NCBI GenBank assembly: GCA_963756875.1
Contig: CAVWPA010000001.1
Location: 480,001-544,000, forward strand
DNA: 64,000 bases
Direction of reading: 5' to 3'
Source: an uncultured Verrucomicrobiae bacterium
GTDB taxonomy: Bacteria > Verrucomicrobiota > Verrucomicrobiia > Chthoniobacterales > UBA10450
Numbering within the stretch: position 1 is the first letter of the stretch; each line of letters begins with the position of its first letter. Below are positions 33,908 to 62,614 of the stretch, piece by piece. Made by a program: the position numbers and the translations under genes. The notes beneath the pieces were generated by a model that did not search any database, was not told the DNA's origin, and saw only the letters and a program-made list of their open reading frames with translations.

Positions 33908-34606
33908 ATGACCAAGAAAAACTCCGCTGCCTTCACTCTTATTGAAATGCTCGTCGTCATCGCGATCATCGCGACCATTGCGGCATTCGCAGTTCCCGCC
34001 CTGACCAACGCGCTGACCAAAGGTCAGATGACGGGAACCATGAACAACGCTCGGCAATTGTATCTGGCCGGTTACCAAATGGCGTTGGATGGGTCGAGCA
34101 ACTCAGACGCGAACCTGGCGTGGCCCGGCGATTATGCGACCGGTACGCTCGCCAAGCTACAAGACTACTGTAACAAGCTTGTGCAAAACGACTATCTCAA
34201 GGCCAGCGATCTTCCGAAGATCTTGAGCGCCCCAGGTGCGAGTTGCACCGTTACAAGCACGACGGATAGCTCCGGTGTAACGACGGTCACTCTGGCCGGG
34301 ACAAAAGCCGCACTGAAAGTCTATCCCGTTAGGGATTCGGATCCTTCCAACACGATCTTTACCGTGAGTTCGAACTACACGTATGACACCGCATTTCCAG
34401 CGCCTGCCCCAAACCCTTACGGTGACAAGGGTTTCATAGTTATACATAAAGGCGGTGACGGCGCCGTTTTGCGGAAGAGCAACGCGGTGGCCACCAGTGG
34501 CGGTACCTCAGCGTTCGAGTCAACTGTGGGCAAAAAGCCCAGCGAAGCCGAGGGGACTGTGACGCCAGGCGACCCTACAAACCCGCCAACGTTAACGTAT
34601 CCTTAA
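33908..34606 (+). CDS. Prepilin-type N-terminal cleavage/methylation domain protein
   Basis: AFTLIEMLVVIAIIA. Confidence 0.88.
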   Translation: MTKKNSAAFTLIEMLVVIAIIATIAAFAVPALTNALTKGQMTGTMNNARQLYLAGYQMALDGSSNSDANLAWPGDYATGTLAKLQDYCNKLVQNDYLKASDLPKILSAPGASCTVTSTTDSSGVTTVTLAGTKAALKVYPVRDSDPSNTIFTVSSNYTYDTAFPAPAPNPYGDKGFIVIHKGGDGAVLRKSNAVATSGGTSAFESTVGKKPSEAEGTVTPGDPTNPPTLTYP

Positions 34607-35895
34607 GGCTCCACTTCCGATCCAAACTCGCCGTCGCTGACCCGCGTTCGAATTCTCATTTTCGGACGAACTGCGGAAACGGTTCGAATTAATTTGCCGG
34701 CTTCATCCGTGGTAATGCTGTAGCCGCGGCGAAGCGTTGCCTCGGGGCCGAGTACCCGCAGGATTCCCTCTGTCTCACGAAAACGGTGCCGCGCATTCTC
34801 CAGGATTCGCAGCGGCAACTCCACGAAACGCCGGCGAAGATCGACCAGCCGGTTGCGCCGAAGAACTAACTCCCCCGAAAGCTTTCGGGGCTGCAGCGCC
34901 GCCGCGATGTGAGCAAGCCCGCGCCTGTAACCGTCGATCTTGTGAGCGAGACAACGATGCAGCGTTTCACGCGCGTGATCGAGCCGCTGCTGCCCATCGC
35001 GCATCCGGCTTAGCAATTCGCGTCCCAGTCCGCGCACGCACGCGTCGATGTGCCGGCGAAGATCGACAATGTCGGGCACGATCAATTCCGCCGCCGCGCT
35101 CGGTGTCGGCGCCCGAAGATCGGCGACGAAATCGGCAATGGTGAAATCGATCTCGTGCCCGACAGCAGAGACAATGGGGACTTCGACATCGGCGATCGTG
35201 CGCGCCACGATCTCTTCGTTGAATTCCCAAAGGTCTTCAATGCTTCCTCCGCCGCGAGTGACCACGATGAGATCGAGAGGCGGCCACTTTTCGTTAGATG
35301 TTGCCAGTTCGCGAATGGCGACTGCAATTTCCTGCGCGGCTCCCGTTCCCTGGACGCGCACAGGATTAATCAGGATTTGCAGCCACGGGGCACGCCGGCG
35401 CAAAACATTCAACATATCGCGAACCGCCGCCCCGCTAGGCGAGGTGACGATCCCGATTCTTCTCGGAAATTTCGGCAGCGGACGTTTTCGATCGATTGCA
35501 AACAAGCCCTCGGCATCGAGTTTGCGTTTGAGTGCTTCGAATTTCGCCTGCAAAACGCCGAGACCGCGTGGCTGGAGGATTTGCACGCTCAGCTGGTATT
35601 GTCCCCGTGCTTCGAAAACCGAGACATTGCCATAAACCTGCACCTGAGTTCCATCCACCAGCGGCTGCCGGAAAAGCGGTATGGTGTTGCGAAAGATGAC
35701 GCAGTTGATCTGGGCGCGTTGGTCCTTGAGCGTGAAATATTGGTGGCCGCTCGGATGCAGTTTGTAGTTTGAAATTTCGCCCTGCACCCAGACCGCACCG
35801 AACTTGGTTTCGAGCGTGCCGCGAATTTGTCGAGTCAACTCCGCGACGGTGAACACCTTGGAGGTTTGGGGGAAGAGGTCGCCGGAGAGTTGCAT
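34603..35895 (-). CDS. xseA: Exodeoxyribonuclease VII large subunit
   Basis: GEISN..SGHQYFTLKD, RGGGSIEDLW, SAVGHEIDFT, PTPSAAAE. Confidence 0.96.
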   Translation of the reverse strand: MQLSGDLFPQTSKVFTVAELTRQIRGTLETKFGAVWVQGEISNYKLHPSGHQYFTLKDQRAQINCVIFRNTIPLFRQPLVDGTQVQVYGNVSVFEARGQYQLSVQILQPRGLGVLQAKFEALKRKLDAEGLFAIDRKRPLPKFPRRIGIVTSPSGAAVRDMLNVLRRRAPWLQILINPVRVQGTGAAQEIAVAIRELATSNEKWPPLDLIVVTRGGGSIEDLWEFNEEIVARTIADVEVPIVSAVGHEIDFTIADFVADLRAPTPSAAAELIVPDIVDLRRHIDACVRGLGRELLSRMRDGQQRLDHARETLHRCLAHKIDGYRRGLAHIAAALQPRKLSGELVLRRNRLVDLRRRFVELPLRILENARHRFRETEGILRVLGPEATLRRGYSITTDEAGKLIRTVSAVRPKMRIRTRVSDGEFGSEVEP

Positions 35896-48441: not shown

Positions 48442-48792
48442 TCATTTCCTCATCATCGCGTCCCGCCGGGCTTTTCGCGTAAAAGGCTGCGCCTCACGCG
48501 ACTCGTTAAAAGGCTCCGGGCCTTTAGTTCGGAGGGGATATTTCGCGAAATAATTCCGCAGTTGCGAGCGCAAGAATCTTCGACTTCCACCGCTTTCTAA
48601 GTATCGCTCGCGACCAAATGCATCAGCTTCTTCGGTATAGGCCTCATAATGGATCAGATTCCATGGACCTCGAAAGCTCGTAGCCTGCACTGCTCCGCTT
48701 TTATGTTCGTTCAGCCGTCGTCGCAAGTCGGTCGAGAATCCGATGTACAGTCCCGCATCTCGTGCTGAATGAAGCAAGTAGACGTAAAACAT
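48442..48792 (-). CDS. Small GIY-YIG nuclease, bracketed by 25-bp inverted repeats
   Basis: FYVYLL..LYIGFSTDLRRRLNEH..YEAY..RERYL. Confidence 0.9.
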   Translation of the reverse strand: MFYVYLLHSARDAGLYIGFSTDLRRRLNEHKSGAVQATSFRGPWNLIHYEAYTEEADAFGRERYLESGGSRRFLRSQLRNYFAKYPLRTKGPEPFNESREAQPFTRKARRDAMMRK

Positions 48793-60194: not shown

Positions 60195-60958
60195 TTGCCT
60201 TGTCCCGCCGCCACCGTTTGTTTCTCCAATTCGCCCCGATCAGTGAGGAGCGGGTGCGGGATCGCCGCATGCGAGTTGCGTTGCACCGCGCGCGCAAGGA
60301 CGAAGGATTTGCCGCGCAACAGAATTTCGATCGCGCGGTTGCGGCGCTCGTTCGCGCGATTCCGATCCCTCAGCCAATCACAGATTGGGTTCCGGAAGAG
60401 ACGCTCATTTCGGCGCCACAACGCCCATGGAAAAAATACGCGCAACACCCGGCGATTGTCGCCACCGCGATCGCCGTTGCGGTGATTGCCGGTGTCTTCG
60501 TGTTTCATGTGATCGACAATCTGAATGATTTTCCAAACGAAGATACCGCGCGAAAGTTGCTGGGAGTGGCAAGCTCGACACGGTCACTGGTTCTTGATCC
60601 GGTGAAGACGGATGCCGGAGAACTCGGCGATCTCTTCTTCATGAAATATCGGCTGGAACATTATGATGTGCCGCCCGAGTTCGCCGACTTTCGGACATTG
60701 GGTTACCGCGTTTTTCCCGATGAGGAAGCGCAGCGGGTCGCCCAGATCTGGGTAGTCGAGAAGCGCATGCAGTTTTTTATTTTTCGAGCCGAGAAAGACC
60801 CCAAAACAGGCGCGCCGCGGGAATTTTCAGGCTGGCGTTATGTGGAGCAGGAAGGATGGGCCGGCGTGATCGAAGAGCGCAACGGCATTTGTTTTATGGC
60901 GGCCATGCGCGGGCGGGAAAAAGATCTGGCGCCGTATATCGCGAAAAAAAGCGATTAG
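60191..60958 (+). CDS. Single-TM hypothetical protein (possible anti-sigma)
   Basis: ATGA coupling to the sigma-like gene; central TM. Confidence 0.55.
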   Translation: MIALSRRHRLFLQFAPISEERVRDRRMRVALHRARKDEGFAAQQNFDRAVAALVRAIPIPQPITDWVPEETLISAPQRPWKKYAQHPAIVATAIAVAVIAGVFVFHVIDNLNDFPNEDTARKLLGVASSTRSLVLDPVKTDAGELGDLFFMKYRLEHYDVPPEFADFRTLGYRVFPDEEAQRVAQIWVVEKRMQFFIFRAEKDPKTGAPREFSGWRYVEQEGWAGVIEERNGICFMAAMRGREKDLAPYIAKKSD

Positions 60959-61030
60959 ATTCGGCTTTGGGAAAGCCGTGCAGGGCCAACGTTGACTCTT
61001 CGTCATAGGCCATTCAACTTTGTGCCGCCT

Positions 61031-61122
61031 GCCAGGGTGGCTCAGCGGCCTGCTCGCGAAGACTTTCGGAGTAGAGCAGCCCGAAAGTATTCGGGGTTGG
61101 TCGCGCGGAGTTTTGCCTGGTA
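61031..61122 (+). pseudogene. Degenerate tRNA copy with a D-loop insertion and palindromic anticodon arm
   Basis: gccagggtggctcagcgg[23 bp]tagagcag cccgaaagtattcgggg ttggtcg...cctgg aligns to the tRNA at 61142. Confidence 0.75.
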
Positions 61123-61141
61123 TTCTTTGAACGAAATTGTT

Positions 61142-61213
61142 GCCAGGGTAGCTCAGCGGTAGAGCAGGGGACTCATAAGCCCTTGGTCGGGAGTTCAATT
61201 CTCCCCCCTGGCA
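61142..61213 (+). tRNA. tRNA with CAT anticodon (probably Ile2/lysidine type, otherwise Met)
   Basis: Cloverleaf GCCAGGG/CCCTGGC-A, D arm GCTC/GAGC, loop CTCATAA (CAT 61174-61176), T arm GGGAG-TTCAATT-CTCCC; CCA not encoded. Confidence 0.92.
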
Positions 61214-61224
61214 CTTTTTACGCA

Positions 61225-61467
61225 ATGGCTTGGGTTTACATTATTCGCGGTTCGTCAGGCCGACACTACATTGGTTCCACAGTCGATCTCGACGCGCGAT
61301 TCGCCCAGCATTTACGTGGTCATACTGCCACAACCAAGCGACTCGGCGAGATGCTTGAGATCGTCGCAAAAAAAGAATTTCCAACTTTGGCTGAAGCTCG
61401 AAAAATCGAGCGCTCATTGAAACGAAAAAGGAATCCAAAGCTCGCAATTTATCACTTGCGGCAGTAG
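61225..61467 (+). CDS. Small GIY-YIG nuclease, array copy 1
   Basis: WVYII..HYIGST.DLDARFAQH..EARKIE. Confidence 0.9.
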   Translation: MAWVYIIRGSSGRHYIGSTVDLDARFAQHLRGHTATTKRLGEMLEIVAKKEFPTLAEARKIERSLKRKRNPKLAIYHLRQ

Positions 61468-61521
61468 AGCAGCCCCGAAAGCTTTCGGGGTTGGTCGGGA
61501 GTTCAATTCTCCCCCCTGGCA
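61464..61521 (+). repeat. tRNA 3' remnant with anticodon arm replaced by CCCCGAAAGCTTTCGGGG
   Basis: Matches tRNA 61159-61213 except in the anticodon arm. Confidence 0.9.
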
Positions 61522-61533
61522 GGTTTTTGAATA

Positions 61534-61776
61534 ATGGCCTGGGTTTATATTCTCCGCGGCTCCTTAGGCAGACACTACATCGGTTCCACGGTCGATCTCG
61601 ACGCACGGTTTGCGCAACATTTACGCGGTCATACTGCAACAACCAAGCGACTCGGTGGAAAGCTTGAAATAGTTGCCAAAAAAGAAGTTTCAACGCTGGC
61701 TGAAGCTCGAAAAATCGAGCGCTCATTGAAACGAAAAAGGAATCCAAAGCTCGCAATTTATCACTTGCGCCAGTAG
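61534..61776 (+). CDS. Small GIY-YIG nuclease, array copy 2
   Basis: 74/80 aa identical to copy 1. Confidence 0.9.
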   Translation: MAWVYILRGSLGRHYIGSTVDLDARFAQHLRGHTATTKRLGGKLEIVAKKEVSTLAEARKIERSLKRKRNPKLAIYHLRQ

Positions 61777-61830
61777 AGCAGCCCCGAAAGCTTTCGGGGT
61801 TGGTCGGGAGTTCAATTCTCCCCCCTGGCA
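61773..61830 (+). repeat. tRNA 3' remnant, identical to 61464-61521
   Basis: Direct comparison; followed by a truncated third GIY-YIG start (atggcctgggtcgatattcttcgc, 61844). Confidence 0.9.
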
Positions 61831-61984
61831 CTTTTTTCGAACAATGGCCTGGGTCGATATTCTTCGCTTTCGGAGTTCTCCTACCGGGGCTCTTATTGCG
61901 GATCGGCGAGTGTGGATTGCGGATTGCTTTCGGAATTCTCCCCGGTGATTTTTTAATTGGAGCATTCAAAAATAGAACGCGACG

Positions 61985-62012
61985 TTGACAGAGTTCGCAG
62001 CGATCCTATACT
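61985..62012 (+). promoter_or_regulatory. Putative sigma70 promoter for rplI-dnaB
   Basis: TTGACA-16 nt-TATACT. Confidence 0.5.
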
Positions 62013-62065
62013 CGTGACCCTGCGGCCGGCCCCTTAACCAACCGGTTTTTTGCGCGGAAACGATC

Positions 62066-62614
62066 ATGTCTTCGACTGAAATTATTTTAACTGAGAACAT
62101 CCCCGGACTTGGTGCGGAAGCCGATCTGGTAAAGGTGCGCCGTGGCTATGCCCGAAATTATCTGTTGCCGCAGGGCAAAGGTTACGAAGTAACGCCGGCC
62201 AGCCTGCGAGAACTGGACAACCTGAAAAAGAAGCGGGCCGAGCGTGAAGCGCGGGAGCTCAACGACGCCGAAGAATTAAACAGGCGAATCGGGAAATTGC
62301 GGGTGACGTTCACACTGGAAACTGGCGAGACGGGCAAGGCATTCGGTTCGATCACGGCGCAGGATATTGTAACGCGCATTAAGCAGGAGATCGGCCAGGA
62401 CATTGACCGGCACAAAGTTGCGCTGGAGCGGCCGATCAAGGATACCGGCGAGCATGAGGTCGCAATCAAGCTTCATCACGAGGTCACTGCGCAATTTAAG
62501 TTCGATGTGAAATCGGCGGAGGAACCCCGCAACCGGGGAACCGAAGAAGCCGAGGACGAACCGTCTGAAAAGAAGCACCGTTCGTTTTTCCGGAGAAAGA
62601 AAGAAACAAAATAA
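62066..62614 (+). CDS. rplI: 50S ribosomal protein L9
   Basis: VKVRRGYARNYLLPQG, FGSIT. Confidence 0.95.
   Translation: MSSTEIILTENIPGLGAEADLVKVRRGYARNYLLPQGKGYEVTPASLRELDNLKKKRAEREARELNDAEELNRRIGKLRVTFTLETGETGKAFGSITAQDIVTRIKQEIGQDIDRHKVALERPIKDTGEHEVAIKLHHEVTAQFKFDVKSAEEPRNRGTEEAEDEPSEKKHRSFFRRKKETK

Follow-up and report, generated by a model that had tools for sequence, protein, structure and literature searches.

In a 64,000-nt stretch of DNA from an uncultured Verrucomicrobiae bacterium (hereafter the window; G000:C1:480001-544000 of genome G000, which comprises 2.69 Mb in 3 contigs), an intact tRNA-Met gene stands within an array of small GIY-YIG nuclease genes and tRNA remnants. The repeated unit of 309 nt consists of a short spacer, an 80-amino-acid (aa) nuclease gene, and a copy of the 3′ two-thirds of the tRNA that has been edited to carry a hairpin. 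On balance, and by analogy, we take the array to be a nuclease and hairpin module resembling the Ssn system and housed in copies of a tRNA gene. It would need no integrase, would be read from the tRNA promoter, since the unit has no promoter of its own, and would spread and amplify by recombination between its tRNA-derived repeats. Neisseria meningitidis SsnA, 94 aa long, consists of a single GIY-YIG domain and is assigned to cd10448 (PMC11893778, Nat Commun 2025), and a cd10448 homologue of Chthoniobacter flavus, which belongs to the same order as the present bacterium, is included in the paper's table. Relative to the Ssn paper, the embedding in tRNA sequence is new: the word 'tRNA' does not occur in its main text and, in the 12 of its 14 supplementary files that were searched, appears in gene descriptions only. 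Also, no description of tRNA-linked mini GIY-YIG cassettes was found in the literature searched, outside of which most subscription journals lie.

The initial annotation, made from the sequence of the window, had described a degenerate tRNA copy, an intact tRNA-CAT, two GIY-YIG genes, their remnants, and a broken third gene start. ARAGORN, PF01541, and a repeat finder agreed on this anatomy (Table 1). The reported 309-bp period corresponds to a direct repeat of 300 nt whose copies are spaced 309 nt apart and are 89% identical; in addition, the repeat finder detected three copies each of a 40-nt tRNA 3′ part and of the start of the nuclease open reading frame (ORF). The ATG of ORF1 lies 10 nt 3′ of the intact tRNA-Met, and a 12-nt spacer separates remnant 1 from ORF2. 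Reading both ORFs confirmed that their stop codons are the TAG within the TAGAGC of the remnant D arm; the hairpin starts about 6-9 nt past either stop. Each remnant is composed of GTAGAGCAG, the hairpin CCCCGAAAGCTTTCGGGG, TTGGTC, the T arm, and the acceptor 3′ strand, and has no 5′ acceptor strand. The hairpin is an 18-nt palindrome in place of 15 nt of the anticodon arm, whereas GTAGAGCAG is exactly kept. From TTGGTC onward the remnants are identical to the tRNA over 31-32 nt, and they are identical to each other, both as initially claimed. Remnant 1 is predicted to fold into a 10-bp hairpin plus the T arm (z = -3.1), and Rfam, at a permissive threshold, scored as tRNA the intact copy only and no remnant. 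With its flanks, the hairpin motif reads CAG-CCCCGAA-N4-TTCGGGG-TT. The third nuclease gene was cut by a deletion that reaches into the hairpin of its remnant, and each of the two decayed pieces consists of the right half of the hairpin joined to T-arm bases.

A pseudo-tRNA precedes the intact tRNA-Met, from which it is separated by a 19-nt spacer. Its first part (61031-61048) corresponds to the acceptor 5′ strand and D arm; the pseudo-tRNA matches the 5′ part of the tRNA in 18 of 19 bases. About 21 extra bases in the D loop form a mini-hairpin (61049-61069); next come AGTAGAGCAG, a variant hairpin at 61080-61096 (CCCGAAAGTATTCGGGG), and TTGGTCG, after which the T arm and acceptor are decayed. 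A derivation of the extra bases from a leftover ORF 3′ end was rejected because the mini-hairpin recurs, as its reverse complement, in the hairpin loop of loci L002 and L022. At these two loci (in the upstream pseudo-tRNA) and at L091 (in the downstream remnant), the loop holds a 27-nt insert that is itself a smaller hairpin (CTCCGAAAGCTTTCGCGAGCAGGAGC-like); a 22-mer of this insert recurs reverse-complemented in the D loop of the pseudo-tRNA (61049-61070). The TTGACT listed in Table 1 was not called by a consensus promoter scan; relatives with an empty site (L134 and L135) have TTGACA at the matching position before tRNA-Met. Given the place of TTGACT ahead of the pseudo-tRNA, transcription from this promoter would cover the whole array.

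Table 1. Features of the tRNA-Met array (positions refer to the window)
Feature	Position	Strand	Basis or remark
TTGACT, likely -35 box of the tRNA promoter	60992..60997	+	direct reading; promoter role presumed
Upstream pseudo-tRNA-Met, in the tRNA's original place behind the promoter	61031..61122	+	sequence reading, repeat finder
Intact tRNA-Met(CAT), elongator-like	61142..61214	+	ARAGORN (only tRNA in window); Rfam RF00005, 67 bits
GIY-YIG nuclease gene 1 (ORF1, 80 aa)	61225..61467	+	PF01541, E 5.6e-14
tRNA remnant 1	61464..61521	+	hairpin CCCCGAAAGCTTTCGGGG at 61473-61490; identical to remnant 2, 58/58
GIY-YIG nuclease gene 2 (ORF2, 80 aa)	61534..61776	+	PF01541, E 9.7e-13
tRNA remnant 2	61773..61830	+	hairpin at 61782-61799
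Third nuclease gene start, 8 codons only	61844..61867	+	repeat finder, alignment
Two decayed remnant pieces, GCTTTCGGAGTTCTCC and GCTTTCGGAATTCTCC	61866-61881 and 61926-61941	+	repeat finder
rplI promoter-like site	61985-62012		array ends before it

The array is no artefact or duplication of the assembly, since 17% of the bases are different between the two ORFs in their first 165 nt. Moreover, a soil metagenome run, which may be the source sample, contains a 232-nt contig identical to 61405-61636, spanning the end of ORF1, the remnant, and the start of ORF2. Each of the public runs holds at most 0.15 of the sampled words, and the contigs recovered from them cover mostly the tRNA.

PF01541 spans residues 1-72 of the 80-aa protein, with no second domain matched in Pfam and no NCBIfam family above its cut-off. 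Across 75 family members, the catalytic-type residues Y5, Y15, R25, H29, E62, and N70 either do not vary or reach at least 90% conservation. ORF1 and ORF2 share 92.5% protein identity. Their ratio of nonsynonymous to synonymous substitution rates (dN/dS) of 0.057 (dN 0.034; dS 0.59 across the whole gene but about 1.0 within the first 55 codons), together with a median dN/dS of 0.127 over 60 family pairs, shows purifying selection on both nuclease copies. At the nucleotide level, the two genes are 82% identical in nt 1-165 and 98.7% identical in nt 166-240. The units are kept alike by a conversion tract of roughly 135 nt that terminates precisely at the tRNA-derived 3′ end. Separate acquisition of ORF1 and ORF2 was considered and found unsupported, as the two are mutual nearest relatives within the sample (82% in the 5′ part, next best 79-80%). 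Very unlike array neighbours do occur elsewhere, i.e. in L033 (70%) and L100 (66%).

To place the locus within its family, ORF1 was searched against 41 relatives, giving matches in 21, from which 20 loci were fetched; a further scan with one genome per species found 229 relatives, and 80 loci were kept. All 20 loci of the first set have a same-strand tRNA just upstream, mostly 5-14 nt before the ATG. Among the 80 species-representative loci, 76 have a tRNA ending within 130 nt upstream (58 tRNA-Met, 17 Lys-TTT, and one Lys-CTT), and the four exceptions (L088, L091, L092, and L097) retain remnants or a displaced tRNA. Both sets together, the tRNA-Met/tRNA-Lys architecture was observed at 96 of 100 loci. 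As a control, the other small PF01541 genes of the same relatives (best-scoring) were tRNA-adjacent at 6 of 26 loci. A hairpin follows the ORF in 63 of the 76 tRNA-adjacent loci, and an upstream unit comprising the tRNA 5′ half, the hairpin, and TTGGTCG is present in at least 34 of them.

ARAGORN detected 39 tRNAs in G000. Initiator tRNA-Met, tRNA-Ile(GAT), tRNA-Asn, and tRNA-Ala(TGC) are not among them; the assembly is 87.6% complete, and these genes probably sit in unassembled parts such as the rRNA operon. Only three of the 39 tRNAs, i.e. Met, an Ile2-like CAT tRNA, and Lys-TTT, have the sequence GAGCAG-N15-TTGGT around the anticodon arm, and these are the kinds occupied by the nuclease family elsewhere. 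The family is strictly tied to tRNA-Met, tRNA-Lys, and Ile2-like genes sharing this sequence. More distant small GIY-YIG genes were found behind tRNA-Pro, Asn, Arg, and initiator Met, with a remnant palindrome that is GC-rich and different in each case.

The palindrome is dispersed throughout the genome, well beyond the remnants in which the initial annotation could see it. CCCCGAA-N4-TTCGGGG occurs at 37 sites in G000 (reversed control pattern: 0), with three sites at tRNA cassettes and 34 away from tRNA genes. Nine hairpins lie in GTAG-type repetitive extragenic palindromic (REP) contexts (GCG[AG]-hairpin-[CT]CGC), where they stand in place of the distal REP stem-loop. The GTAG-type REP family of G000 (GTAGCGGCGGTCTATGACCGTCGC) is arranged in inverted pairs, 27 by one pattern, and a second family (GTAGGGCG...) was also noted. 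Another hairpin supplants the leader hairpin in a duplicated leader behind tRNA-Ala. This leader belongs to a GIY-YIG cassette behind tRNA-Ala(CGC) at G000:C1:157629-158542; CCCCGAAGGCTTTCGGGG stands there in place of the first hairpin, so that a cassette of one nuclease family has received the hairpin of a different family. Within the window, an in-frame hairpin at 34873-34890 lies inside an xseA-like gene (minus-strand ORF 34603..35895; ..LQPRKLSGEL..). Compared with the closest relative, it overwrites 18 nt and leaves the length unchanged, and no hairpin was found at this position in five relatives.

At 15 of the 37 sites, CAG immediately precedes the hairpin in one orientation, compared with about 3% expected per site by chance. 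The stem is fixed, while the 4-nt loop is free (AGCT 10 times; AGCG, AGCC, and AGCA five times each) and loop inserts of 27 nt are tolerated. Very tentatively, the 18-23-nt hairpin could be a mobile patch that overwrites existing stem-loops through breaks by a partner single-strand nuclease and short-patch templated repair. Its targets may comprise (i) tRNA anticodon arms; (ii) the tips of REP hairpins; (iii) the leader hairpin of another cassette; and (iv) the 18 in-frame bases of xseA.

Presence of the hairpin follows presence of the nuclease. Of the 41 relatives, 16 have a strong nuclease match, and every one of these genomes carries 2-52 hairpins, whereas 19 of the 20 genomes without a match carry none; the five relatives with weak matches only have 5, 5, 0, 0, and 0. 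Across the order, 151 evenly sampled genomes, in which the nuclease was called at E <= 1e-10, included 25 genomes with the nuclease and 27 with the hairpin (both, 18; nuclease only, 7; hairpin only, 9; neither, 117). Five of the seven nuclease-only genomes have a variant hairpin at the cassette. Four of these (G165, G157, G135, and G050) show the same architecture with a compensated stem, CCCCGAC-N4-GTCGGGG, which in all four occurs only at the cassette, and G130 has the imperfect variant CCCCGACCTTGGCCGGGG. In the remaining two, the matches are weaker and lie downstream of other tRNAs. Hairpin occurrence thus goes with the nuclease, and the stem sequence changes together with the nuclease lineage. 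Of the initial view that the hairpin is an immunity or recognition mark, the recognition part gains from this co-variation, from the dispersal and the tracking of the nuclease, and from the likeness to Ssn; immunity of a homing target is not favoured.

Related genomes also document gain or loss of the cassette and its tandem growth. In G005 and G019, the gene upstream of the array in the window is followed by tRNA-Met with no cassette. The empty locus of G019 (L135) and a filled locus of G001 (L005) have both flanking genes in common, and the filled allele equals the empty allele plus spacer, ORF, and hairpin remnant; the cassette was gained or lost at one syntenic site. G007 retains a decayed upstream hairpin unit that has no ORF, with 6 hairpins in its genome, and the family also includes frameshifted, truncated, and ORF-less units. 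(G007, G002, and G014 are flagged unpublished; G014 accounts for L006 among the 20 loci and for a single row of alignment A2.) Two or three nuclease copies in tandem were found at 12 of the 80 loci, and six pseudo-tRNA units stand upstream in each of L033 and L088, with periods of 89 nt and 78 nt, respectively. The comparable arrays that the initial annotation proposed to look for are present in related genomes, and its concept of a minimal, integrase-free, tRNA-tied element forming tandem arrays is borne out by the tRNA linkage, the tandem loci, and the empty and filled alleles. A strictly nested mode of insertion was rejected: it predicts equal numbers of upstream pseudo-tRNAs and downstream units, but the counts are 1 vs 4 in the window and 5-6 vs 2 in L033. 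Unequal recombination must therefore also act. Some joints lie close to the hairpin, i.e. the ORF stop 6-8 nt before it, the D-loop insert of the upstream pseudo-tRNA about 10 nt before it, and the ATG|GAGCAG of ORF-less units 6 nt before it; this clustering on the 5′ side is only suggestive, as further joints (tRNA-Ala leader, xseA) fall at the very base of the stem.

A mechanism can be proposed on the model of SsnA, which binds the NTS hairpin repeat solely in single-stranded form and cleaves the DNA a few nucleotides upstream of it; SsnA does not need the loop bases and accepts loop extensions, while the stem sequence, three bases upstream, and one downstream matter (PMC11893778). By analogy, the protein encoded in the array would bind its hairpin in single-stranded DNA and nick a few bases 5′, and the nick would fall at the border of the ORF and the tRNA-derived sequence. 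Breaks beside the 40-nt and 26-nt tRNA-derived repeats could drive unequal exchange, conversion, and excision of 309-nt circles, with unit duplication, deletion, and gene conversion as outcomes. The tRNA sequence on both sides would serve as homology arms for host recombination into an intact tRNA gene; since a circle or a taken-up fragment has tRNA homology on both sides, it could enter such a gene with no integrase. Entry of this kind would leave a working tRNA upstream, as in the filled allele observed, and selection for the working tRNA would remove other outcomes.

Several points weigh against an Ssn-like module in tRNA copies. For a nuclease, cutting the border of its own element is not enough to account for the first invasion of a naive tRNA gene. 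By reading, the hairpin is unlike the published NTS/SRM consensus (core ATTCCC-N8-GGGAAT), and the nearest solved structures in a PDB profile search are UPF0213, UvrC, and SLX1. Nine of the 151 genomes hold hairpins with no nuclease match. As the variant hairpin of the f13 and f12 lineages lies only at the cassette, dispersal is not intrinsic to the system, and as related genomes are not independent, the co-occurrence counts overstate the statistics.

Another explanation is a homing cassette whose nuclease cuts the intact tRNA gene between GAGCAG and TTGGT, with repair from the cassette copy and the palindrome conferring immunity. A precedent exists in SegB of phages T4/T6, a free-standing GIY-YIG enzyme encoded beside tRNA genes; it cuts inside them, and a tRNA + segB unit depends on it for its tandem amplification via short homologies (PMC2330249, PMC13096335). 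It would also fit that replacement within the tRNA copies is confined to the anticodon arm, that the target tRNAs have the flanks of this arm in common, and that empty and filled alleles both exist, giving a presence/absence polymorphism at one site (G019 empty, G001 filled). However, the premise of the initial annotation that GIY-YIG domains drive homing is ill suited to this protein: in Seg-type enzymes the GIY-YIG part is joined to a DNA-binding domain, whereas here the 80 aa hold a bare catalytic domain. Furthermore, the intact tRNA present in every cassette would stay a target, and homing explains neither the 34 of 37 hairpins away from tRNA genes, including those in REP elements and xseA, nor the tracking of the nuclease by hairpin number. 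We therefore regard homing as unlikely.

A host function was also considered, i.e. a housekeeping nuclease within a tRNA operon, with the tRNA-like spacers acting as signals for RNA processing, stability, or termination. The position of the ORFs, 5-14 nt behind the tRNA and with no promoter of their own, would be expected of such a gene, as would the strong purifying selection. In addition, one contig of a relative's RNA library runs through a hairpin remnant, tRNA-Met, and the beginning of the ORF, which is a weak hint of co-transcription, as DNA may be present in the library. The patchy distribution (25 of 151 genomes), the variable copy number, the frameshifted or truncated copies, and the empty alleles speak against a housekeeping role, and SsnA is inactive on RNA (PMC11893778). 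As for the remnants, the initial suggestion that they are RNA processing signals found no support: they have no acceptor 5′ strand and were not scored by Rfam. A terminator scan found no terminator-like site in 60800-62150, and the hairpin is therefore not a canonical terminator. Taken together, a host function is improbable.

The hairpin might instead be part of a REP/RAYT system, or simply a favoured stable stem-loop, with its presence in the remnants incidental to the nuclease. Consistent with this are its REP contexts at nine of 37 sites, six Y1 transposase domain matches in G000, and the nine genomes of the order that have the hairpin and no nuclease match. Yet the Y1 domain (PF01797) occurs in 36 of the 41 relatives, including 19 of the 22 hairpin-free ones; being nearly universal, it does not explain the hairpin pattern, which follows the nuclease instead. 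A link to RAYT was rejected at the level of the PF01797 domain, as repeat number does not follow presence of the Y1 transposase. The stem variant switches with the nuclease lineage and is there confined to the cassette, and the hairpin holds a fixed position past the stop codon in 63 of 76 loci, which leaves such an origin very improbable. Finally, direct repeats of tRNA 3′ ends flank the units as at the borders of integrase-mediated tRNA islands, but scars of such islands (attL/attR repeats) with the nuclease as leftover cargo are hardly credible given units of only 309 nt, an identical minimal architecture at about 100 loci, a repeat copy that is hairpin-edited unlike att sites, and, in line with the initial annotation, the absence of integrase and transposase domains from the five flanking ORFs that were scanned (aminotransferase, two ORFs without family, L9, and DnaB).

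Other GIY-YIG genes in G000 show related arrangements. Cassettes of other subfamilies lie behind tRNA-Gln, tRNA-Ala, tRNA-Gly, and an Ile2-like tRNA. A third cassette type was found behind an Ile2-like CAT tRNA and tRNA-Gly(GCC) (G000:C1:661641-662100 and C1:355580-356150); here, a two-hairpin leader of about 115 nt between the tRNA and the small GIY-YIG gene is duplicated past the gene. The window itself contains an intact 116-aa GIY-YIG gene of another subfamily (48445-48792, minus strand) that is bounded by 25-nt inverted repeats (CGCGTAAAAGGCTCCACCTCACGCG / CGCGTGAGGCGCAGCCTTTTACGCG) and located at the 3′ end of a protein-coding gene and not of a tRNA. These inverted repeats also accompany a frameshifted relative located behind tRNA-Gln (G000:C3:436750-437114).

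The locus and about 100 related ones offer natural evidence on two questions left by the Ssn paper: the role of mini-nucleases outside Neisseria, and the hairpin-gene-hairpin layout as a mobile element. This evidence includes gain or loss of the cassette at a single site, arrays that have grown in tandem to either side of a functional tRNA, tracts of gene conversion, and hairpin patches within other genes, and it comes with a clear host-site rule (tRNAs with GAGCAG-N15-TTGGT). The question of mobility can now be tested with one small protein and a few oligonucleotides. If hairpin patching is real, it would amount to mobility of a new kind, in which tRNA genes are the safe harbour of the nuclease gene. 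The cassettes would also explain many odd 'tRNA-like fragments' in genome annotations, and they point to a new hairpin specificity in an enzyme class that has been proposed as single-strand DNA tools.

Among known systems, the mobile GC clusters and double-hairpin elements of fungal mitochondria are reportedly short GC-rich palindromes that spread within the genome and land in structured regions; they are organellar, and we know of no dedicated nuclease shown for them. Integrative elements land at a tRNA gene, duplicate its 3′ part, and keep a working tRNA. The array shares these three features, but differs in having no integrase domain in the five neighbouring ORFs, a unit of 309 nt, and a hairpin-edited tRNA copy. 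With IS200/IS605 and REP/RAYT elements it has in common a small nuclease gene and hairpins, recognised in single-stranded DNA, that multiply in the genome (PMC11893778). Those enzymes work through an HUH/Y1 covalent intermediate, whereas GIY-YIG enzymes hydrolyse DNA; a hydrolytic nuclease cannot rejoin strands, and host repair must therefore do so. SegB resembles the present nuclease in that its GIY-YIG gene adjoins tRNA genes and forms tandem units of tRNA + nuclease. It differs in being a phage enzyme with a DNA-binding part that cuts double-stranded tRNA genes, and it is not known to have hairpin-substituted tRNA copies or a dispersed hairpin.

The closest parallel is the Ssn system, with which the properties measured for the array agree on every point except the hairpin sequence. 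In the published survey, the hairpin motif flanks 71% of ssnA-homologous genes, 42% on both sides; variant hairpins pair with variant Ssn enzymes, and distant homologues have their own sequences (PMC11893778). In Neisseria, SsnA limits transformation, and the authors likened the NTS-ssnA-NTS arrangement to an insertion sequence (PMC11893778). In the array described here, by contrast, hairpins replace the anticodon arm of tRNA copies, and the gene lies directly behind an intact tRNA, often in tandem. The hairpin sequence also differs from NTS/SRM, and copies number tens and not hundreds. Nevertheless, the two systems are alike in (i) a single-domain GIY-YIG protein of about 80-94 aa; (ii) a gene flanked by its cognate hairpin repeat, which is dispersed in the genomes that carry the gene; and (iii) a conserved stem with a few flanking bases and a free loop, with hairpin variants accompanying nuclease variants.

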